Shown here piece after piece: positions 26 to 14,964 of a stretch of 38,798 nt of DNA. The notes under the pieces are model-generated. The model had not been told where the DNA came from. It made no database searches and saw only the letters and a list, made by a program, of their open reading frames with translations. The stretch is taken from the IMG/VR virus record IMGVR_UViG_3300015370_000029, positions 1 through 38,798 of that record. One strand, written 5' to 3'. The stretch's first letter is position 1; each line of letters starts with the position of its first letter. The DNA comes from a virus (taxonomy: Duplodnaviria; Caudoviricetes). The position numbers and the translations under genes are program-made.

Positions 26-220
26 GTGATGAGGAAGAAAACGGGACCGAAGCCGAGGGGCTATGTCAAGGTGTTGGTGAATATCCCTGCCGCATATCTG
101 GAGTTGATGAAGATAGAGAACGAGAAGTGCGGCGGGTTGAACCCGGTGAGTGAGCAGATCAGGACAGCCATTCGCGGGAAGTTATGTGGATTGATATATA
201 TCAGTCTACTCAATCGCTAG
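26..220 (+). CDS. Small DNA-binding protein, ribbon-helix-helix-like
   Basis: Basic N-terminus (RKKTGPKPRG), beta-strand VKVLVNIP, then two helices (VSEQIRTAIR). The stop TAG overlaps the GTTAGGT core site at 220. Confidence 0.5.
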   Translation: MMRKKTGPKPRGYVKVLVNIPAAYLELMKIENEKCGGLNPVSEQIRTAIRGKLCGLIYISLLNR

Positions 221-232
221 TTAGGTGCTAAT

Positions 233-481
233 ATGCAAATTGATATTGAATTTCACGAAAGAATCGGCGGCATCCAAATTGCCATGGTCAAAGTTGGTAA
301 CACCATGGTTGTCATGGAGCAAAAAGATTGGCTTGAATTTGCCCATGGAGTTATCCGCGAAATAGAAACGCACCTAACAAAGCGTGCAGCGGACGGGGCT
401 TGCTGCTCGTCCTGTGGAAGTAAGTTGGTCAACGGCGTTTGCGTATTCCATGGGTGTCCCGTGGTAACGCCCCGCCGCTAA
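233..481 (+). CDS. Cassette 1 ORF, hypothetical; the C-terminal ~36 aa are encoded by the attC site
   Basis: ORF track; starts 13 nt after the start of the core site GTTAGGT; lower GC than the structural genes. Confidence 0.6.
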   Translation: MQIDIEFHERIGGIQIAMVKVGNTMVVMEQKDWLEFAHGVIREIETHLTKRAADGACCSSCGSKLVNGVCVFHGCPVVTPRR

Positions 482-509: not shown

Positions 510-647
510 ATGGCAAAGTTTTGGTGTTGGTTATTCGGTCATAAGTTTTGCGAATACTCAGAATTTTCACAAAAACATAATAACCCCGCTTGGGTACATT
601 ACTGTTCGCGTTGCTGTGTAAAATTCCATAAGATAGTTCGCACCTAA
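510..647 (+). CDS. Cassette 2 ORF, 45 aa, DUF1660-like (C-x-LFGHK ... C-x-RC) small phage protein
   Basis: Manual translation MAKFWCWLFGHKFCEYSEFSQKHNNPAWVHYCSRCCVKFHKIVRT. RBS GGAGG at 501-505. Stop TAA lies inside R'' ACCTAAC. Not in the ORF track. Confidence 0.7.
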   Translation: MAKFWCWLFGHKFCEYSEFSQKHNNPAWVHYCSRCCVKFHKIVRT

Positions 648-666
648 CACCGCGTTACCGTTGGGC
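642..666 (+). mobile_element. Internally deleted attC site 2 (25 nt)
   Basis: ACCTAAC-ACCGCGTTACC-GTTGGGC: both R boxes present, L boxes and stem missing. Confidence 0.7.
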
Positions 667-695
667 GGCTCCCTTATAGCCAGAAAGGTTTTGAA

Positions 696-914
696 ATGAA
701 TAAAGTTCTTTACTCATCAACCGATGAAATTGAATGTAAATTGAAAACAAAGGTTGTCATCAATGAGGCTGGGATTTGGCTTATGCAGAATGATGAGGGC
801 GTATTGGTTGCGGATTGGCAAGCAATCGAAGCCGCCCAACACAAGATGCACCCGACCAAAAACGGGCGCGGCAAATCTGCCAAAGTTTCTACTCCCGCCG
901 TTTTTGGCGGGTAA
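696..914 (+). CDS. Cassette 3 ORF, hypothetical; reads through its attC
   Basis: ORF track; AGAAAGG RBS upstream; stop TAA lies in the right arm of attC3. Confidence 0.65.
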   Translation: MNKVLYSSTDEIECKLKTKVVINEAGIWLMQNDEGVLVADWQAIEAAQHKMHPTKNGRGKSAKVSTPAVFGG

Positions 915-929
915 TCTAAGCCGTTAGGT
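834..929 (+). mobile_element. Integron attC site 3
   Basis: R'' GCCCAAC (834-840) and R' GTTAGGT (923-929). Arms AGATGCACCCGACCAAAAACGG / CCGTTTTTGGCGGGTAATCT have the same two unpaired positions as attC1. Confidence 0.85.
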
Positions 930-934
930 GCTTC

Positions 935-1111
935 GTGAAAATAATTTGTGGTATGCGTCAAAAAGGTATCTGGTGGTTTCGTGTGTTCGGAGTTGGTCTT
1001 TCGTGGAAGGACATCCGTTTACACCCGCTCATATTTTCGGAGCGCAATGGGTATCGTAAAAAGTTGCGTATTGGTTGGTGGATATTTCACTATCTTCCAC
1101 GCGGCGGGTGA
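935..1111 (+). CDS. Cassette 4-like ORF, 58 aa Trp-rich hypothetical protein; no downstream attC
   Basis: Manual translation (GTG start) MKIICGMRQKGIWWFRVFGVGLSWKDIRLHPLIFSERNGYRKKLRIGWWIFHYLPRGG, directly after R' of attC3. Confidence 0.55.
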   Translation: MKIICGMRQKGIWWFRVFGVGLSWKDIRLHPLIFSERNGYRKKLRIGWWIFHYLPRGG

Positions 1112-1115
1112 AAAA

Positions 1116-1209
1116 GTGCTATAATTTCGTGTATATCCACCCGCCCGACAGACATGAGAAACGGGGCAGTCCAACCAGGACTGCCCCGTTCTTGTTTTAA
1201 GTGGGCGGG
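1116..1209 (+). promoter_or_regulatory. Putative late promoter (extended -10 TGCTATAAT) plus structured leader, copy 1
   Basis: TGCTATAAT at 1117-1125; CCGACAGACAT motif; 13-bp stem AACGGGGCAGTCC/GGACTGCCCCGTT with T-rich tail. A second copy lies at 17015-17180. Confidence 0.65.
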
Positions 1210-2128: not shown

Positions 2129-2698
2129 ATGAAGAACGTTTGCGGTGCGAAACTTCGAGGCAAGGATCGAACCTGCCAGAAGCCGCCGATGGCAAACAAG
2201 CGGAGATGCAGGCTGCATGGCGGTGCAACTCCCAGCGGACCCGATAGCACGAACTATAAACACGGACGGTATGCGCTGGTTTTCAGGGGCAGACTGGCTG
2301 AGAAATTTGCAAGCGCATCGGCAGACGAGGAACCTTTGGATCTGCTGCCTGAATTAGCGGTGCAGAGATCGTTGTTGGCGCAGTACGTGGAGGTGGTATC
2401 GGGCAAGAAGACCGTGAAAGCCGGCGACGTGAAGAACGTCAGTGCTTTGGCGGAGGATGTGGTGCGGACGGCGGCGACGATTGCGAAGGTGCGCAACGAC
2501 ACAGCGTTGACGATTGCCGAGGTGAGATTTATCCAAGCCGGCATGATGAGATTATTGGAGAAATATGTCACTGATCCAGACCGACAGCGGAATTTTATCG
2601 AGGAGCTCAGTAGACTTGTTCCTGGCAGGTATGATGCCGGCGGCGGCGTCTCCACAGTTCTTCCCGTTGGTGCAGGAAAAGCAAGCCAGGTTGCTTGA
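2129..2698 (+). CDS. terS: Terminase small subunit with HGGxSTG-type N-terminal domain
   Basis: CGAK...C...RCRLHGGATPSG...NYKHGRY motif; directly upstream of TerL. Confidence 0.75.
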   Translation: MKNVCGAKLRGKDRTCQKPPMANKRRCRLHGGATPSGPDSTNYKHGRYALVFRGRLAEKFASASADEEPLDLLPELAVQRSLLAQYVEVVSGKKTVKAGDVKNVSALAEDVVRTAATIAKVRNDTALTIAEVRFIQAGMMRLLEKYVTDPDRQRNFIEELSRLVPGRYDAGGGVSTVLPVGAGKASQVA

Positions 2699-5063
2699 GG
2701 CGTGCGGATTTCCATGTGTGCCGGCGGGGGAGCATGAGTTCAGCGGGCAGATGATTCCGATGTGGCAGGCGACCGGGGAGCGCAAGCAGGCAAAGGCGAG
2801 TCTGATCGGGTTTGGCGGGGCGGCATACGGCGGCAAGAGTTACGGCATGTTGATCATGGCTCGTGTGGCAGCGGAATTGTGGCCGGGCGTGCAGATCGCC
2901 TACTTCCGCAGGACGTACCCTGAACTGGACGGACCGGGAGCCAGCATCCAGAAAGCATATGGAGTCTTTGGGGATGTGGCAAAGGATACGAACGGCGGCA
3001 AGGAGTGGCAATGGGCGAATGGGAGTACGGTGTTCTTTCGTCACTGCCAGAACGAGAAGGATGTGTACAGTTATCAGAGCCAGCAGATTGACATCCTGTT
3101 GTTGGACGAGGCAACACACTTTACCTGGTTCATCGTGGATTATTTACTAACCCGTAACCGGGCGAGTGGGGATGTAAAGACGACAGGCTTCAGACCTTTT
3201 GCAGTGATGCCCAGCAACCCGGGTAATATCGGACATCAGTGGTACTCGCAGGTGTTCGACGTGGAGCAGAAGTCCGGCAAGCATGAGAGTTTGAAACTGG
3301 TACAGAACCCGAACGGTAAGAATGCGCAGGTGTATTTCATCCCAGCCTTTCTGGAGGACAACCAGATCGGGGTGGCAGCTGACCCGGAGTATGAGAGCCG
3401 GCTGACACAAAGAGACCCGGAGATTGCGAGAGCGCTGCGATACGGCGATTGGAGTCTATTTGCAGGGCAGGCATTCCCTGGTTGGACAAAGGATCGAATT
3501 GCATGTGAACCGTTCGAGATCCCTGAACATTGGGCGAGGTGGCGGGCGTTGGACTATGGTTTTGTGCATCCGTGGGCGGCGGGTTGGTTTACGGTGGACC
3601 CTGCGACGAAGCGTTTGTATGTGTATAAGGCAGTCAAGAAGAGCGAACTGACCGACACACAGCAAGCCGTGTTGATGAACTCCATGACCGCAGCCGATGA
3701 GCGCATTACTGTGACGTATGCCAGCCCGGATATGTGGGCACGGAAGACGCAAGGTAACAAGGTCTTTACCAGTGTGGACGAATACAAAGCGGAAGGGGTG
3801 CTGCTTACTCGAGCCGACAACGAACGGTTGAATGGCAAGCGTAAGATTGACCGCTTGTTATTCGATGCGCTGGACGGCAAGCCGATGGTCCAGGTGTTTG
3901 AGCCTTACTACGAAGTGTTCGCCTGCATGAGGACGTTGGTGCGGGATGATCATAACCCAGAGGATGTGAAGAAGGTGGATGGTGACGACTGTATAGCGGC
4001 TGGAACATTGGTCACAACCGATAAAGGCGACAAGCCGATTGAGGAGGTGATTGCAACAGATATGGTATTGACACGCAAAGGATACAAAATGGTAACGCGT
4101 GCATGGCTAAAACAAAAGAACTCGGTAGTTTATAAAGCAACCTTTAGTGATGGTCGTTATGTAATTGGGACTGGCAACCATCCTGTTTACGTTGTAGGTC
4201 GTGGTTTTATAAATCTTGACACTCTTAGTCATGGTGATGTGATCATCACGAAGGAGAATATATTATGCCAACCGACACAGTTATCTTTAATGGATACAAG
4301 TTTAGACGGTACCCAAGCTCTGAAAACAAGACGCATCAGAGATATTATTCGCCGAGTGGCAATTACAGGCAGCGCGGTATTGGTTTCCTTCATCAAGAAG
4401 TTTGGAAGAGCGTGTATGGAGAAATTCCAGAAGATCATCACATTCACCACAAGGATCACAACCCACTTAATAACGATATTACAAACCTTGAATGTGTCAA
4501 TAGGCATGACCATCTATCCGCTCATTCAAAACAACATGCGCCTGGCGTCGAGCACATGGATAGAATACGCAAGTTGGCAGCAAAGTGGCACAAGTCGAAA
4601 GTTGGCAGGCAATGGCATTCAGAGATCACAAAGTCTGCATGGAAAAATCGCGTGTTACAAACGCTTGCTTGTAACTTTTGTAAAAAGGAATATCAAGTGC
4701 TCTTCAAAAGAAAGGCTCACTATTGCTCTGCGCTTTGCAGGTCTGCGGCGCGGCGGAGAAGCGGCAAGGATGATGTTTCGAGAACTTGTCCAGTTTGCGG
4801 AAAAGATTTTGTTACAAATAAATATGATGACACACAGACATGCTCACGATTGTGTGGTGCGAGTTTGCGACGTTCAAAAGCTCGATAATCACCAAGACGT
4901 ATACAACCTAACTGTGATGGACGAACACGAGTTCTTTGCGAACGGCGTGCTTGTTCATAATTGTTATGACATGCTGAGATACGGATTATCGAACATAAAC
5001 CAACCGACCAAGACGCAGACCAAGACCGTGCATCCTGCGAGAGGAGTGAAGGCGATATGGTAA
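2631..5063 (+). CDS. terL: Terminase large subunit, intein-containing (probable start 2631)
   Basis: Walker A GGAAYGGKS, Walker B LLLDEATH, PSNPG coupling motif, nuclease LDYG and DD..C/YDMLRY motifs. Confidence 0.95.
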   Translation: MMPAAASPQFFPLVQEKQARLLEACGFPCVPAGEHEFSGQMIPMWQATGERKQAKASLIGFGGAAYGGKSYGMLIMARVAAELWPGVQIAYFRRTYPELDGPGASIQKAYGVFGDVAKDTNGGKEWQWANGSTVFFRHCQNEKDVYSYQSQQIDILLLDEATHFTWFIVDYLLTRNRASGDVKTTGFRPFAVMPSNPGNIGHQWYSQVFDVEQKSGKHESLKLVQNPNGKNAQVYFIPAFLEDNQIGVAADPEYESRLTQRDPEIARALRYGDWSLFAGQAFPGWTKDRIACEPFEIPEHWARWRALDYGFVHPWAAGWFTVDPATKRLYVYKAVKKSELTDTQQAVLMNSMTAADERITVTYASPDMWARKTQGNKVFTSVDEYKAEGVLLTRADNERLNGKRKIDRLLFDALDGKPMVQVFEPYYEVFACMRTLVRDDHNPEDVKKVDGDDCIAAGTLVTTDKGDKPIEEVIATDMVLTRKGYKMVTRAWLKQKNSVVYKATFSDGRYVIGTGNHPVYVVGRGFINLDTLSHGDVIITKENILCQPTQLSLMDTSLDGTQALKTRRIRDIIRRVAITGSAVLVSFIKKFGRACMEKFQKIITFTTRITTHLITILQTLNVSIGMTIYPLIQNNMRLASSTWIEYASWQQSGTSRKLAGNGIQRSQSLHGKIACYKRLLVTFVKRNIKCSSKERLTIALRFAGLRRGGEAARMMFRELVQFAEKILLQINMMTHRHAHDCVVRVCDVQKLDNHQDVYNLTVMDEHEFFANGVLVHNCYDMLRYGLSNINQPTKTQTKTVHPARGVKAIW
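3990..4961 (+). mobile_element. Intein (324 aa) in the TerL nuclease domain
   Basis: Block A CIAAGTLVTT, block B GTGNHPVYV, block F DVYNLTV, block G FFANGVLVHN followed by +1 Cys. Removal restores DGDD-CYDMLRY. Confidence 0.95.
4265..4888 (+). CDS. HNH endonuclease with C-terminal Zn-finger repeats, nested out of frame within the intein
   Basis: LHQEVW...IHHKDHNPLNNDITNLECV (HNH_3-like), CxxC/YCSxxC pairs, own RBS AAGGAG at 4251-4256. Confidence 0.9.
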   Translation: MPTDTVIFNGYKFRRYPSSENKTHQRYYSPSGNYRQRGIGFLHQEVWKSVYGEIPEDHHIHHKDHNPLNNDITNLECVNRHDHLSAHSKQHAPGVEHMDRIRKLAAKWHKSKVGRQWHSEITKSAWKNRVLQTLACNFCKKEYQVLFKRKAHYCSALCRSAARRRSGKDDVSRTCPVCGKDFVTNKYDDTQTCSRLCGASLRRSKAR

Positions 5064-8043: not shown

Positions 8044-11000
8044 ATGGCAAAACAATGGTTAGGTGAAAGGAAGATGGCGCGCCTCCAGGGGCATGAGGAG
8101 GATTTCTATCTTGATGAAAAACGCCCGCAATATAAGTGGGTGGGTGAAAGGAAGATGGCAGCCCGGCGGAAACAATGGGAGAAAGACCGAGACCTTGAAC
8201 AAGCCGGGCTGCTGAATTATCAAAATAGAGGTATGAGTGCGGCTGAGATCGCCGCGCGGTCTACGGCTGCGGGGCAACCTCAACTGCCGATCCAGTACAA
8301 GACAGCGGACAACGGGCTGGTGGTGAAACAACAGAGGTATTCGTGGTGGAATGGGGCGCCGGTTGAGAGTGTCAGTAAGCCAACTTATTCAGAGGACTAT
8401 ACACAACCGCAGTTGAATCCATACGCGGGGGATTTTGACTGGTCACGTTTGACGGTGGAGCAGAAGAAAGCCATCACCGGTAATTCAGAATTCAGCATGT
8501 CGAAGGTGATCGCGCCCGGACAGCAGGGCATGATCCTGAGTGATAAGGGATTGGGGTTGTGGAGTAAAAATCAAAGCGGGACATACGGCAGCCAGGACCT
8601 GCAATGGTGGCAGCCGGTGGCATTCTCGGTACTCTCTGACCCGAAGACCACGCCGTTGGTGCAGGGAGCGGCGATGACATTGCTGACGGGCGGACAAGCC
8701 TTACCGCTGGCGATAGGCATAACGGGGCTGGCATACGGCGCGCAACTGAAGGGTAACGAGAATGCCTCGCTCAATGCGGTTGGATCCTTCTCGGAGTGGA
8801 TGTTGAAACCTTTCATGGCTGGCGCATTTGCGCTGGAGCAGGTGGGGGGAGTGATTGATTATCTAGTCGGTGGCAAAGATACAAGTTTTTATAACGTGCC
8901 GGCAGTAGAAGCATTCAAGACCATCCAGGCGATCAACGAAGCGAATAGACTGGAACAATTTATCAGCGACCCGAAGTTGAGGAAGGCGGTTTGGGAAGCC
9001 GGCAAGGTCTATTATGAGTCACTGGCGGGCAAGCAACAGCCTTATACAAAGGTACTTGAAAAACTACTGGACGACATGCCATTGGCGCAGAAGAAGGATA
9101 CGATCAAGGCGATCAATGCCTTCCTGCCACTGGTGAAGGAGGAGAACCAGGTCTGGGTGTTGGGTGAGAACGAGACTGTGCCTGTGCAGCCGGGGTATAC
9201 GCTGGACGATGCGGTCAAACGGATATTGAATGGGGAGAGCGCGGATGCGTTATGGACGGAATATCAGCGGGTGTATGGCATCTCGGGAGTAGCCAGCGAC
9301 TTCATGCTGAGTGCGATCTATGACCCGTTGAATGTATTGCCGACTGTGGTGGGTAGAACCAAAGCGAAGATCGCCGAGACCAGGGTCAAGAGTTTGGCGG
9401 GGTTGAGTGAGTTGAGCGAGGTACAGGCGGCGCGGCTCAAGATCGAAACGATCAAGGCGGACATCTACCGAGCTACACCTGGCATGTCGGGCATGGTAAT
9501 ACCGTGGAACGAAGCCAGCAGAAGGTTTAGGAAGTTGATCGTGGATGTGCCGGATGTTGCAAAGCATTTGACCTGGGGGGAGCGGATCATTGCGGGGGTG
9601 ACACCGGATGGGAAGGTGAAGGAACTGCTGCCGAATGCGCAGAAGGTGAAGGGCGCGCCGTTATCTCAAAACCTGCCGATAGCCTGGAAGAGATTTTGGT
9701 CACTACAACCCGAAGCCAGGGCTAATTTGTTCCGCGACAAACTGACAGAGAATATACAGGTGGTGTTCGACTGGTCGCTTGCCACGGGGAAGACCGACCC
9801 GAAGGCGATGATAGACGTGATCGAAGCGGCAAGCAAGATGGACATGGTCACGCTGCGGGAGGCAGGCGCGGAATTCATGGGCAGTCCCGAAGCATACACG
9901 ACCATCGGCGCGGCGCGGGATGTGCTGCCGAAACTGAGAGCGGATCAACTGGCATACGAGGCGCTGGCGAGAAACCGCGAACAGTTCCACAATATAGCCG
10001 GCATGATCGGGGACGACCCGAAGCTGGTATTGGAAGGGTTCTTGAAGGACGACGCGCGCCCGATGTTCGAGCGCTTGAAGGAAAAACTACGGGGCACAGA
10101 CACGCCAGAGGCGAAGGCATTATTGAAGGCGATTGACGAGGGCAAACTGACAGCGGGCGAATTGAAGCAGACCTTCAAGCCGCTGGAGACAGCGCCTTTG
10201 AACGACATCGAATTTATGGCACGCATCAATGAGCGCATGTACGACCACCTGAAGGATTGGGGCAAGGAATACTTTCAGGTAAAGGATCATAACGTTTGGG
10301 ATGAAAGTCTGAGGCTGTTGAAAGGGGCGCAGTCCCTGCTGTTATTGGATGTGAACCCGTACAGCATCCTGAACGATTTTGTGAACGAGCGGATCATGCT
10401 GTTGACAGAGGGGACGCTGGGATTGACCAGCGGGAAAACGATAGACGCTTTCAAGCAGGAGTTTGGGGTGTGGCCTGAGCTGGCGGGCGGGTCTGGATTG
10501 TTGGGAGATATTGCAACAGAGAAGACAAAACTCTCGGCATCCATGAAGGAGAACAAGGGCATCGTCGGTAAGGCGGCGGACAAGCTCAACCTCTTCCGAA
10601 GCTACCTGCCGAGGTCAGCGGCGGCGAGTCGGTTCAACGCGGCGCATCACCAGCAGATGATCTATTCGGGAGTCAAGGAATATTGGGGGAGAAACTGGAT
10701 AGAGGGCAGGGGCTTTGACCGGATGCCTGCCTCGCTCGAGGCGCGGTTGAGGGAATACAACATGGACCCGCAGTTGGTCTACCGCAACGCGCGCTCGATC
10801 TTGAAACCCGAACAATTGGAAATCTTGAAGACGCGCGCCACCAGCCATGACATTGGGAATTACATAGCAGACGCGGCTGAGAAGGTAGGCAAGACGCCGG
10901 GTGAACTGACCGCCCTGATGGATAGGATGGGGGTGGTGGATGAACTGCGCCAGGGGTTGGAGAAAGCAGACACGCCAGCGAAACGGGATAAGGTCTTCGA

Positions 11001-14000
11001 TGGGGTGGATCAGAAGGTACAGGACTATATTGACCGGCGGATCGCGCAGGAGATACCCGGCAAGATACAGGATTACATTGATAAGATCAAGACCGAGGCG
11101 CACGGCGGGGCGATGCAGGTTTTCAACGAAGTGGCGTTGCAGACCTTTGAAACGCGCCTGGAAGTGGATAAGATTTGGGACGAGGCTTATGCAAAAGCGG
11201 CAGAGGTTGATTTTGAAATAGGACGGGTGATCAAAGGCGAGGCGGCAAGACAAGCCGACACCGTATGGCGCAGGACACAGACACGGCAGGCGATGCTTTA
11301 TACGGGCGTGGCAGAAGGGCTGGGGTTCAAGGATGAGTTCAGGCTGAATTACCTAAAGTCATTGGGTGATCAGCAGACCATCCTACGCAATTATTTTCAA
11401 GAGAAGAGCCGGGCAATCGAGAGATATTTCAACACCGAGTATACGAGCAGGGAGGCGCGCAGCGCGGAGTGGTATACGCTGGAAGCGGAGTTGAATACAA
11501 GATTTGCGGAAGAGCAAAGCAAGGTCTTGAAGATCCAGGAAGGCATGAACGACCTGTTCGTGGATGAGATGCGCGCGAAGTACGGGGAGCCGGCGGGGGT
11601 GATGGCGAATGCCTGGGTGACGAAGACGCTGGCAGCCTCGACGGGCATCCATGAGATGATCGTGGCGTTCAGGGATTCAATCAAAGGGATGGATCCTGAG
11701 CAGAGGGCAAATGCGTGGAAGCGGTTCAAGCCGGAGTTTCAGGCTGCGTATTATGAGCGGACAAAGGTGGACATGGCGGGGGCGGCGGAGTTGTGGAAGG
11801 GGGAGGAGAGCCCACCCCCTGACCCCCTTCGTCCTTCGGACACTTCCCCCAAATCGGGAAGCGCATCCGATTTAGGGGAAGAGGTGTCAATAATCGGAGA
11901 AGTGCCGGCAAAGGAAACACCGACTGCTAAGGAGTTGGCGGAGGCGCAAAAGCAGAGAAGGGTGGAAGCTGCCAGGCAGAGGGCTGAGAGTCTGGCTCCC
12001 ATTTGGGAGGTGGCAGAGCGATACCCATACCTGGACGCGCCATTCAACCGCAACGTTGATAACGTCTCTTTGCTTGCGATCTTGCGCAAGGAGGAATACG
12101 GCGGCATTCGTGATCTTAGTTTGGACGACCCGCGCCTGACGCCTGAGTTGGTGAGCAGCGTGTTGGAGGCGCGGAGACAGATCACGGAAAGGATCACTGA
12201 GACGCCTGTCCGTATGCAACAAGCGAGTGAAGCAAGAGCCGAGATCGAAAGGCTGAACAAAGCGCGCAAGAATATGACGCCGCCAACGGTCAAGAAAATC
12301 AAAGGCGGGGGAGCGGAGATCAAGTTTGCGGATGGCAGTAAAAACATTCTCAGCGCCGAAGAAGTGGCGCAGAGCGGCGGATTGGATGGAGTAAAGCAGG
12401 AAGTGTTGCGCGCGCAAAACAGCGTGATAGACAGCGAGATCGCGCTAAACCAGCGCAGGTTGGATATGGCTATGGATGGGGTGTTGTTGGAGGCGGCTCG
12501 TATCAGCATTTCAGAAGTAGAGGGACGGCTGAGGGAGTTGGAGGCGCAATACATCGGCTTGAAATCCGACCGCGCGCACCTGGGTGAATTCCAAAAACAA
12601 CTGATCGAGATACAGGATAACCTGATCGTGTTGGAGCAGGCTGTGCCGGATGACGCGCCGAGAGCGCTGCAAGCGCAGTTGATCACAACGCAGGAGAAAA
12701 TCAGCAAGCGGCTGGCAGTGTTGGAAGATTACATAAAGGCGCAGGAGATCGTCGGGTTTGAGCGCGCATTGGAGACCGACCCTGAATCACCGCTCTTCGA
12801 GGAAGCGCCGAGCGACCCACGGGCATTGTTCAAGGATGGCGGAGACCTGCCACTGTTGGCTCCGGGGGCATACGATCAATTAGCCAGCCGGATGGATGCG
12901 ACCAAGATATTCGAGGACGGGTGGAGCGACCAGATCAGGCCGGCATTGGAAGCGATGAAGGAAAGCGCGAACAGTCCAGAACGGCGTTACACCTTCAAGG
13001 ACATGGACGCGCAGACACAGAGGGAACTCAATCAATACCTGGGGACGTTGAGCGGCAAGATGGCAAGCGCCAAACACGCAGCTAGTAAATGGGGCGAGGT
13101 GAATGCGGAGTACGGCTTGCTGAACTATGACCGCCAGTATGGGTTCGATAAGATATTTAGCGCGTTCGTGCCATATGAGTTCTTTGGAACGCGCAGCGCG
13201 GCGAACTGGATGGCGCGGATCATGGACAGGCCGGCATTCGTCTCGCAGTATGTGCGATATCTGAACCTGCGCAAGACCTACGAGAACGACCTGCCGGAAC
13301 GGATGCGTGGGAAACTCTGGCTGCCGACGCCCTTCATGCCAGATTGGGCGGGGGATGGGGTGTGGTTCAACCCGACCTACCAATTGGTGCCGTTCACGCA
13401 GTTCATCCAGCCGTTACAAGCCTATAAACGCGACAATCAAAACCTGATCAACAATGCCATGTATGTCCTGCGGGATATGGCAGAAGCCGACCCGAACAGC
13501 AAGGGGGCGGTTGAGAACGCCATGCAGACACAGAGCGGTCCTATTTGGGAGCGGGCGCTGGCGCAGGCAAAGGCGGAGAATGAGAACACAAACAGCGGGG
13601 CGGATTACTTCTCGATGTTGTTCTCGCCGGCTTTGTATATGACCATCCCGTATTATCTGGCGACCGGGAAGAAGCTGGGCGGGATCAATACCTCGTGGCC
13701 TTCCGGGCAATTGCCGATCACTAAAGTGGGGTCCGCAATGGAAACAGCCTTCAAAGGCACGTCCTCAGAGTGGATCGGGGATGTTGCCGGGCTGCTGGCT
13801 AGACCTGAGAATTACGCGCGCAAGCAATTGAGTTTGAGTGAGTTTGGGGAGTGGGGCGAGTATTACATCGAGCGGCAGTTGGTGAACATGGCGGCGGAGG
13901 ATGGCTACGATCCAAAGGAAGTATACAAGGCGTTGATCGAGAAGACAGGTCCGCTGTACGAAGAGGCGACCAACCGCGTGCGCTACGAACTGATGTTGAA

Positions 14001-14904
14001 GGTGCCGGGCATGGCTCCGTTGTATGCGGCGGCTCACGATGCCTCGCTGGATAAGATAGTTGGGTCGCTGCTGACTTCGCTCTATCCTGCCGGGATACTG
14101 CCAGCCGCCGAGATGGAATACAGGGGTTTGAAGCAGGAATTCAACGAGGCGTGGAAAGCCAAAAATAACGGCAACGACGAGCCGATGGATAAATTCTGGG
14201 ACGATCACCCTGAATATTCTGCGCGCCTGGCATTGCGTAAGGACCCGGAAGAACGGATGCAGCAATTCCTTGTCTCCGAGGTGTGGGATGCTTACGGGGT
14301 ATTAGGAGCGACAGATAGGAAACAGGCGGTAGCCGAGCTTGGTTTGCAGGAATTCTTTGATGGTGAACTTGGCACAGAATACACGATGGAGCAGTTAGTA
14401 ACGTGGGTGCGCGGGTTGAAGGGCATGGTCCCGAAGACGCCTGTGACTGAGCCGATGTTGAGCCAGCCCGCACCGCAGATCAATTACTACGACAAAGCAG
14501 TGACGATGGTGACGGATGAGTATTTCAGCCAGCGGACGAAGAAGTTCCCGAATTTTTACGAGGAGCAGACGGGCTTTTATGCACTGCCGAAGAGCGAGCG
14601 CAATGCCTATCTTTTGAAGACGCCCGGGTTGAAGGCGTATTGGGATTGGAAGGACGCCTGGTACAAGAAGTATCCGCAGTACGTGCCTGTGTTCAACGGG
14701 CAGGTATTCAAGCAGGTGGATACAAGCGGGTGGCCGCCAGGGTTGATGGATTATGTGATCAGCTATGCCTACACTGGTAAGAAGATGCCGAGCGGCGCGA
14801 TGAAGGCGCTGGAGCAGCAGTGGATCGTGGAGGGGATGCCGATGGATGACTTGAAATCGTGGCTGGATAATGTTGTTGCGCCGGCTATGATGTATGGAGA
14901 ATGA
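8044..14904 (+). CDS. Giant (2286 aa) putative internal virion/DNA-ejection protein
   Basis: Very long helical ORF in the structural module with a hydrophobic stretch near aa 205-235. No tape-measure periodicity or catalytic motif recognised. Confidence 0.6.
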   Translation: MAKQWLGERKMARLQGHEEDFYLDEKRPQYKWVGERKMAARRKQWEKDRDLEQAGLLNYQNRGMSAAEIAARSTAAGQPQLPIQYKTADNGLVVKQQRYSWWNGAPVESVSKPTYSEDYTQPQLNPYAGDFDWSRLTVEQKKAITGNSEFSMSKVIAPGQQGMILSDKGLGLWSKNQSGTYGSQDLQWWQPVAFSVLSDPKTTPLVQGAAMTLLTGGQALPLAIGITGLAYGAQLKGNENASLNAVGSFSEWMLKPFMAGAFALEQVGGVIDYLVGGKDTSFYNVPAVEAFKTIQAINEANRLEQFISDPKLRKAVWEAGKVYYESLAGKQQPYTKVLEKLLDDMPLAQKKDTIKAINAFLPLVKEENQVWVLGENETVPVQPGYTLDDAVKRILNGESADALWTEYQRVYGISGVASDFMLSAIYDPLNVLPTVVGRTKAKIAETRVKSLAGLSELSEVQAARLKIETIKADIYRATPGMSGMVIPWNEASRRFRKLIVDVPDVAKHLTWGERIIAGVTPDGKVKELLPNAQKVKGAPLSQNLPIAWKRFWSLQPEARANLFRDKLTENIQVVFDWSLATGKTDPKAMIDVIEAASKMDMVTLREAGAEFMGSPEAYTTIGAARDVLPKLRADQLAYEALARNREQFHNIAGMIGDDPKLVLEGFLKDDARPMFERLKEKLRGTDTPEAKALLKAIDEGKLTAGELKQTFKPLETAPLNDIEFMARINERMYDHLKDWGKEYFQVKDHNVWDESLRLLKGAQSLLLLDVNPYSILNDFVNERIMLLTEGTLGLTSGKTIDAFKQEFGVWPELAGGSGLLGDIATEKTKLSASMKENKGIVGKAADKLNLFRSYLPRSAAASRFNAAHHQQMIYSGVKEYWGRNWIEGRGFDRMPASLEARLREYNMDPQLVYRNARSILKPEQLEILKTRATSHDIGNYIADAAEKVGKTPGELTALMDRMGVVDELRQGLEKADTPAKRDKVFDGVDQKVQDYIDRRIAQEIPGKIQDYIDKIKTEAHGGAMQVFNEVALQTFETRLEVDKIWDEAYAKAAEVDFEIGRVIKGEAARQADTVWRRTQTRQAMLYTGVAEGLGFKDEFRLNYLKSLGDQQTILRNYFQEKSRAIERYFNTEYTSREARSAEWYTLEAELNTRFAEEQSKVLKIQEGMNDLFVDEMRAKYGEPAGVMANAWVTKTLAASTGIHEMIVAFRDSIKGMDPEQRANAWKRFKPEFQAAYYERTKVDMAGAAELWKGEESPPPDPLRPSDTSPKSGSASDLGEEVSIIGEVPAKETPTAKELAEAQKQRRVEAARQRAESLAPIWEVAERYPYLDAPFNRNVDNVSLLAILRKEEYGGIRDLSLDDPRLTPELVSSVLEARRQITERITETPVRMQQASEARAEIERLNKARKNMTPPTVKKIKGGGAEIKFADGSKNILSAEEVAQSGGLDGVKQEVLRAQNSVIDSEIALNQRRLDMAMDGVLLEAARISISEVEGRLRELEAQYIGLKSDRAHLGEFQKQLIEIQDNLIVLEQAVPDDAPRALQAQLITTQEKISKRLAVLEDYIKAQEIVGFERALETDPESPLFEEAPSDPRALFKDGGDLPLLAPGAYDQLASRMDATKIFEDGWSDQIRPALEAMKESANSPERRYTFKDMDAQTQRELNQYLGTLSGKMASAKHAASKWGEVNAEYGLLNYDRQYGFDKIFSAFVPYEFFGTRSAANWMARIMDRPAFVSQYVRYLNLRKTYENDLPERMRGKLWLPTPFMPDWAGDGVWFNPTYQLVPFTQFIQPLQAYKRDNQNLINNAMYVLRDMAEADPNSKGAVENAMQTQSGPIWERALAQAKAENENTNSGADYFSMLFSPALYMTIPYYLATGKKLGGINTSWPSGQLPITKVGSAMETAFKGTSSEWIGDVAGLLARPENYARKQLSLSEFGEWGEYYIERQLVNMAAEDGYDPKEVYKALIEKTGPLYEEATNRVRYELMLKVPGMAPLYAAAHDASLDKIVGSLLTSLYPAGILPAAEMEYRGLKQEFNEAWKAKNNGNDEPMDKFWDDHPEYSARLALRKDPEERMQQFLVSEVWDAYGVLGATDRKQAVAELGLQEFFDGELGTEYTMEQLVTWVRGLKGMVPKTPVTEPMLSQPAPQINYYDKAVTMVTDEYFSQRTKKFPNFYEEQTGFYALPKSERNAYLLKTPGLKAYWDWKDAWYKKYPQYVPVFNGQVFKQVDTSGWPPGLMDYVISYAYTGKKMPSGAMKALEQQWIVEGMPMDDLKSWLDNVVAPAMMYGE
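11822..11881 (+). repeat. Dispersed hairpin repeat type A, in-frame in the 2286-aa gene
   Basis: ACCCCCTTCGTCCTTCGGACACTTCCCCCAAATCGG...CCGATTTAGGGGAAG. Confidence 0.85.
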
Positions 14905-14964
14905 CCCCCCTGTCGCCGAGTACGGCGACATCCCCCCAAATCGGAGAACACGATTTAGGGGGAG
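14904..14964 (+). repeat. Dispersed hairpin repeat type A
   Basis: ACCCCCCTGTCGCCGAGTACGGCGACATCCCCCCAAATCG...CGATTTAGGGGGAG. Confidence 0.9.

Follow-up and report, generated by a model that had tools for sequence, protein, structure and literature searches.

Coding attC sites in a phage cassette array as probably exchangeable protein tails

Cassette ORFs usually end at or before R'', the box that bounds an attC site on its left side. Near the beginning of the phage genome considered here, two small ORFs run through R'' and on into the site, and this raises the question of whether an attC site can also serve as the end of a protein and, if so, how such an end comes to be joined to the body in front of it. 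The window, by which the whole stretch of DNA analysed is meant, measures 38,798 bp and is a whole virus record, linear and estimated to be 91% complete (G000). Its 43 scanned ORFs include those for a large terminase, a portal-like protein, a major head protein, an endolysin, a serine integrase and a repressor; by this gene content, it is a temperate phage. A search of annotated GenBank phages gave no match. Neither a tyrosine recombinase (among the 43 ORFs) nor an integron integrase (TIGR02249, E<=1, in G000) was found, and the intI of a complete integron is thus absent. Elsewhere in the genome, the large terminase gene (2565-5063) contains an intein-like insert in which a different frame holds an ORF for an HNH endonuclease (4265-4888); the insert is absent from the 507-aa terminase of a relative (L754). 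A 2286-aa ORF at 8044-14904 has no PHROG match and a weak Pfam match only. Palindromic repeats (CCCCCCAAATCGGAGA..CGATTTAGGGGGAG), unrelated to the attC family, are dispersed between genes from 14903 to 35465, for example at 14932, 16970, 20486 and 31257.

Small ORFs follow one another from position 220 up to a terminator-like hairpin (1160-1190), with an attI-like site and attC-bounded cassettes at 220-931. Two full attC sites and one remnant lie close together at 370-929 without intI, and the array is a CALIN in this sense. The last small ORF (948-1124) and the hairpin close it (948..1190). All features of the array described here are on the + strand. Promoter-like sites were not found on the + strand of positions 1-1300, and Rfam gave nothing relevant for 1-2500.

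The first of the two ORFs (P0001, 233..481) encodes 82 aa, made up of a 47-aa body and a 35-aa attC-coded tail that ends in ...HLTKRAADGACCSSCGSKLVNGVCVFHGCPVVTPRR before the stop. The initial annotation had claimed that it passes R'' and terminates at a TAA in the right arm, and the translation bears this out. It had also placed attC1 at 370-481; the site is present, but its true extent is 370-496, with R'' at 370-378, L'' at 384-391, the loop at 400-468, the TAA (479-481) in L' and the GTT of R' at 490-492. The unpaired C387 and A393 are G and T on the bottom strand. As had been noticed, the loop is poorly paired: the fold of lowest energy differs from the canonical hairpin (z -1.5), and the computed probability of the recombinogenic fold is 0.08 for the bottom and 0.06 for the top strand. 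The second ORF (P0002, 696..914, 72 aa) has a 46-aa body and a 26-aa basic attC-coded tail without cysteines, ending in ...AAQHKMHPTKNGRGKSAKVSTPAVFGG. It too reads through its site to the TAA at 912-914, as annotated. Its site, attC3 (831..929, R'' at 831-840, GTT of R' at 923-925), was the second one reported initially and has a canonical fold (z -3.7 for 831-931), with a probability of 0.72 on the bottom and 0.24 on the top strand. In both ORFs 8 nt separate the TAA from the GTT of R', so that the claimed equality of position is correct, but on its own it shows nothing, since the TAA belongs to the L' consensus and an equal position is expected. Between the two lies an ORF of 45 aa (P0003, 510..647) with its own AGGAGG and an ordinary stop at the TAA of R''; its match to DUF1660 is weak and below the cut-off (E 0.0096). 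It is followed by a 30-nt attC remnant (640..669), in which R'' is joined almost directly to the GTT at 660-662, while the L boxes and the loop are missing and no stable fold is formed.

The assignment of these sites as attC is supported by the family to which they belong. In both full sites an imperfect hairpin is bounded by an R'' of the form RYYYAAC and an R' of the form GTTRRRY (370-378/490-496 and 831-840/923-929), the R' of attC1, GTTGGTT, departing from the consensus once. The complementary L boxes carry extrahelical bottom-strand G and T and are kept by covariation. When arms were anchored by sequence alone, the three variable L-box positions were Watson-Crick paired in 205-206 of 215 sites, with several types of pairs, against 75-105 in shuffled sets. 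The unpaired C (bottom-strand G) recurs in 255 of 267 viral sites, a figure partly imposed by the search patterns, and the TAA is part of L' in 211 of 223 viral and 132 of 136 genomic sites. These sites were collected by pattern scans that gave overlapping sets of 29, 113, 86, at least 155 (35 of 64 parts), 76 and 83 viral loci and at least 197 genomic loci (6 of 64 parts); loci beyond the first 80 of a scan have shorter flanks, and site counts take only sites with both arms. In the viral loci, attC lengths cluster near 38, 70, 88 and 105 nt.

The same family stands in bacterial chromosomes. Among the 80 titles listed for the genomic scan, 70 are Chloroflexota, mostly Anaerolineae, and three of five genomes tested have an intI above the cut-off; in one (G002), it faces away from an adjoining array of 33 sites of this family. 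On the strength of this occurrence beside intI in Anaerolineae-type chromosomes, the host of the phage is inferred to be an Anaerolineae bacterium. None of five attC-rich viral records has an intI above the cut-off, and one comes close. This is an IntI-like gene in a viral record (L751:871-1908, G008; TIGR02249 258 bits, cut-off 265) that begins directly after an attC GTT inside a phage array of the same family, with a second attI-like site near 2640. Scanning with this IntI gave one other viral IntI (L753), whose locus is devoid of the left arm of the attC family.

The array begins at an attI-like primary insertion site (GTTAGGTGC, 193..228, left limit approximate), with the crossover G|TT at 220/221. 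Comparable sites (..ATA|GTT or ..CTA|GTT) head about 20 viral arrays and the chromosomal integron of G002. The motif, often TGTACA..AAAC[AC]TA|GTT, stands at the head of phage arrays without intI, both in the window (193-228) and in these viral loci, about 20 in number. Positions 220-228 are the exact complement of the R'' at 370-378 (9/9 nt, cassette 1), and the R'' of attC3 is the exact 10-nt complement of 660-669 (10/10, cassette 3). In 75 of 92 viral cassettes R'' fits its own cassette start better than its own R', and in 10 it fits worse. Complementarity of this kind, as at 220-228 and 660-669, is characteristic of cassettes that have been inserted at G|TT. Cassette 2 has no such match, and because the R'' of the remnant does not fit its own cassette start, the sequence suggests that the remnant arose by deletion or fusion. 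Contigs of three sequencing runs from three studies (X1, X3, X6) match the window up to the GTT at 220-222, one of them to 224, and continue into three different sequences. By this comparison, the array is undergoing rearrangement at the attI-like site, and different first cassettes that start exactly at G|TT suggest that an IntI-type activity reaches the locus. A phage with a 63% identical portal protein (L754) carries different read-through cassettes at this position and a similar closing hairpin. The attC1 loop without the body in run X3 and the body without the loop in X6 were not counted, as no contig bridges them; the joints found across the loop in these runs have sides of less than 30 nt, likely derived from other attC sites.

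Whether the sequence beyond R'' matters as protein can be judged from the family as a whole. The 267 viral sites form 196 loop clusters, and 39 clusters serve as the genomic control. In the viral set, 137 clusters are read through, 55 have an ORF that stops at or before R'' and 4 have no ORF, against 6 and 31 in the genomic set for the first two classes (Fisher p 4e-10). Counted by site, the ORF stops at or before R'' in 120 of 136 chromosomal cases, the loops of which are of a few repeated types. When the frame is chosen from the upstream sequence only, 108 of the 137 read-through frames match the register of the L' stop, while permutation gives a mean of 56 and a maximum of 76 in 20,000; 41 of the 137 read-through ORFs terminate elsewhere. 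A four-ligand motif occurs in 25 of 71 long tails, whereas the other sense frames contain it in only 2 of 142 cases and the antisense frames in 3 of 213, and shuffling the residues of the long tails yields 7.6 on average and 16 at most. The number of cysteines in these tails is bimodal: 34 have none, four have one, none has two and 33 have three or more. Cassettes bounded on both sides behave alike, with 74 of 95 in register (permuted 38), the motif in 14 of 53 tails against 1 of 106 off-frame, and all 15 zinc-motif loops entered in frame; the bounded genomic set is confined to 11 clusters, four of them reading through. The consensus of RanBP2-type fingers, applied as a regular expression, fits seven tails, which use two distinct frames with respect to the arm, and nothing off frame. 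One CxxC-x9-CxxC tail stands on eight unrelated bodies with all four cysteines invariant. The codon-position changes in eight same-loop pairs (18/14/21; 14 synonymous and 23 non-synonymous codons) provide a weak signal. Taken together, these counts make it very probable that the attC-coded tail is selected as protein. The proposal of the initial annotation that the loop has been recruited as coding space is well supported by relatives, register and motif counts, and its counterpart, a tail frame and cysteines distributed at random among relatives, is far from what the register and motif tests give.

In P0001 the loop encodes a Cys/His cluster (401..457; C57, C58, C61, C70, H73 and C75 in the translation). 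The CxxC-x8-CxxxxC motif reported from the initial annotation is present as C58-x2-C61-x8-C70-x4-C75, with C57 and H73 as alternative ligands. With four Cys/His ligands in two knuckles it has the make-up of a zinc ribbon, and the tail is a good candidate for binding zinc. Pfam has no match to P0001, and the tail pattern (CxxC-x8-CxxH or CxxC-x8-Cx4C) fits none of its models; 31 Cys-tail proteins likewise have no Pfam match above the curated cut-off. In the predicted structure, the body consists of three strands and a helix, and the Cys/His tail has a pLDDT of about 60. Foldseek retrieved nothing at E<=0.001. Likenesses to the COMM (best Z 5.3) and Pur-alpha (5.2) folds involve residues 1-55 only, in a common arrangement, and no function is claimed from them.

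Seven relatives of P0001, compared as protein sequences only, have bodies about 70-96% identical to that of P0001. All seven continue past R'', with the arm-coded LTxRAxD, three to four cysteines and an end at the L' position; most of those with only three cysteines also have a histidine. Homologs that stop before R'', which would have spoken against a coding site, were not found among them, and a search with the body alone gave no tailless form (8 matches of 9 candidates, 26-84 aa). A scan of metagenome DNA for relatives returned the window itself only (L581, excluded from all counts). The Cys-rich character of the tail is thus kept in all seven, but the spacing of the cysteines is not, as the whole tail has been replaced: the tails are unrelated to one another, with the exception of one pair (P0004/P0005). 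P0002 presents the converse picture, for all of its 10 matches share the tail and none the body, nine other body types being represented; one match extends three residues beyond. A profile of the tails retrieves 437 proteins at E<=0.001. Among the best 150 of these, 24 are short proteins with the arm-coded tail end, and the others are mostly longer, with several matches. The zinc tails are not independent origins, as some are of common ancestry, and since 34 of the 71 long tails lack cysteine, zinc cannot be their general purpose. Other loops (L137, L034, L061, L058, L017) encode hydrophobic helices, Lys/Ser-rich tails or a DIPF end, the last of these resembling the tails of SSB proteins. A class of clamp-binding-like QLxLF tails was too rare to be retained (3/137 in frame, 2/274 off frame).

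At the DNA level, the point where bodies and tails meet can be located rather narrowly. Six independent pairs with the same body are identical up to YAAC and mostly different from L'' on, while 25 independent pairs with the same loop have L'' and the stem in common and are mostly different upstream of YAAC. Over the 6 nt that directly precede YAAC, all six same-body pairs agree fully, as do 20% of the same-loop pairs. The variable bases of L'' are identical in 33% of same-body and 80% of same-loop pairs (random 14%), and the stem bases follow the loop in 84%. The spacer bases beside AAC clearly track neither the loop (44%) nor the body (33%; random 23%), and because of this ambiguity the exact cut is not fixed. 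As read from these alignments, the join is confined to some 6 nt at the AAC of R'' and falls in or just after this triplet. Reading frames differ in 5 of 19 same-loop read-through pairs, as would fit blind joining followed by selection. Some pairs depart from the simple pattern. In L096/L167 the loops are 99% identical and both spacers and both L boxes have changed together, and in P0004/P0005 the tail is common and both arm-coded parts are different. On the whole, bodies and tails are likely exchanged as separate modules, in a natural form of protein part-swapping.

The reading that we prefer, with a probability of roughly 0.62, combines these elements: the attC sites would encode in-frame tails, that of attC1 likely zinc-binding, and bodies and tails would likely be swapped by the integron integrase of the host. 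For whole cassettes, this would be the usual bottom-strand reaction at G|TT, the IntI coming in trans from the Anaerolineae host or from an IntI-carrying phage. Tails would move by a rarer top-strand reaction that cuts AA|C in R''; cutting of top strands in R'' by IntI is described in two papers (PMC5027507, PMC2727003). Recombination between two top strands would then, as an inferred step, join a body to the interior of another site without inversion. Selection would retain the in-frame joins; under preserved pairing of the arms, the loop would evolve into a small module of the protein, be it a zinc ribbon, a basic tail or a hydrophobic one. As the actual route of swapping, this top-strand exchange is given somewhat less than an even chance. 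In the class 1 system, top-strand delivery results in about 1000-fold less recombination, according to PMC3458562; the conservation of the unpaired bottom-strand G favours bottom strands and speaks against the route, and pairs that have changed both arms around one loop are unexplained by a single top-strand cut. The low computed probability of the canonical attC1 fold and the poor model of the tail count against the reading as a whole. A wider version, possible but doubtful, is a two-part shuffler in which IntI uses both attC strands, and bodies (G|TT to AA|C) and interiors (zinc finger, basic or membrane tail, together with the stop) are independent mobile modules recombined into new small proteins. 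A new body placed before a resident attC may then be a possible origin of gene cassettes, an idea in keeping with body lengths that gather around 153 and 220 nt. Measured from GTT to R'', the bodies of 148 bounded viral cassettes show two length clusters, one of 141-161 nt (37) and one of 214-228 nt (28); an apparent periodicity of 70 nt was gone once the first peak was removed.

Other routes could bring about the same exchange. The tails could be selected modules swapped by short-homology recombination, through phage annealing proteins or RecA, within the conserved 25-30 nt of the left arm. The arms are the only sequence common to all cassettes, the window lacks intI, the boundary is mapped to a short interval only, and arms can change around an unchanged loop. 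Yet L'' and the stem follow the loop while the bases before YAAC follow the body, so that crossovers are concentrated at the arm's 5' end instead of being spread along it, and different first cassettes beginning exactly at G|TT suggest that IntI-type activity reaches the locus; we consider short homology unlikely as the route. Loop-only swaps through a second exchange in an attC x attC synapse would accommodate L096/L167 and P0004/P0005, the very pairs that are awkward for a single cut. The structure of this synapse is, however, reported to prevent such an exchange (PMC2727003, PMC5027507), and the right spacer, which should follow the loop, does so weakly (36% vs 25%), which renders this route improbable.

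The remaining alternatives concern the tail itself. The initial annotation suggested that translation through the hairpin is kept for its effect on downstream expression or recombination, in which case the peptide would matter little. That attC hairpins hinder ribosomes and that short attC ORFs relieve this is known from Jacquier et al. (as reviewed in PMC8876359), poorly translated cassettes are reported to lower downstream expression (bioRxiv 10.1101/2024.03.26.586746), and many tails are of low complexity. But operon coupling as the main role predicts neither four-ligand motifs in the read frame only, nor a RanBP2-type consensus, nor invariant cysteines. The next ATG lies at a median of 37 nt after the stop, the same distance at read-through as at classical viral sites, and the ORF at 510 has its own AGGAGG. 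We hold this explanation to be very improbable as the main one, though translational coupling may have been the first benefit and the way in which read-through began. Finally, the tails could be neutral by-products of compact cassettes that run into attC, stop at a default TAA and acquire cysteines by chance. The TAA is indeed consensus, R'' is often CCAAC without a stop, and part of the read-through ORFs end elsewhere, as counted above; the register and motif tests nevertheless refute this at the level of the family, and the seven P0001 relatives with Cys-rich, mostly unrelated tails argue in the same direction, so that it is hardly credible.

The array can be compared with several known systems. 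It shares with the chromosomal integrons of Anaerolineae the R''/L''/L'/R' anatomy, the unpaired bottom-strand G and T, the covarying arms and the complementarity of R'' to the cassette start, but there the ORFs stop at or before R'', whereas the viral ORFs mostly run through and have diverse tail-coding loops. Like the phage CALINs of Qi et al. 2023 (PMC9892861), it has several attC sites in a phage without intI; five of the six phage attC sites tested by these authors recombined with IntI1. The parts covered of that paper contain no mention of coding attC sites, zinc or Chloroflex, and with respect to the CALINs described in them, the window array differs in beginning at an attI-like site and in having first cassettes that differ among relatives. 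Synthetic coding attC sites, which Nivina et al. 2020 (PMC7439510) proposed for the shuffling of modules, likewise combine attC and coding sequence in one DNA. They are engineered linkers and a recoded lacZ with the usual join at R', while the phage sites are natural and C-terminal, form a small domain of their own and are joined at R''. Short ORFs in attC and ORF-11 at attI1 (PMC8876359) also let ribosomes cross a recombination site up to a site-borne stop, but these are separate ORFs that act on translation re-initiation, and not, as here, ends of cassette proteins with conserved residues. Several tails fit known zinc ribbons (RanBP2-type, PF00641; double zinc ribbon, PF12773), and the tail profile retrieves multi-finger proteins; the attC1 tail differs in matching no Pfam model. 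A search of the open-licence literature led to CALINs of phages, to coding attC sites made by engineering and to short ORFs inside attC, but not to natural attC-coded protein tails.

By comparison of sequences, the attC sites of this phage array seem to double as exchangeable protein tails, and their coding role is well supported. The attC site has usually been treated as a non-coding spacer, and those that code were obtained by engineering. In the present family, which is natural, the same bases would be subject to both DNA folding and protein constraint, with protein fronts and ends mixed at a fixed point. This would also explain the many phage proteins without a name whose C-terminus reads LTxRAxD...CxxC...xRR. 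If the top-strand route of IntI, which is normally avoided, proves true, integrons would shuffle protein parts and not whole genes only, and the question of how genes acquire an attC would become testable with a small, defined substrate.
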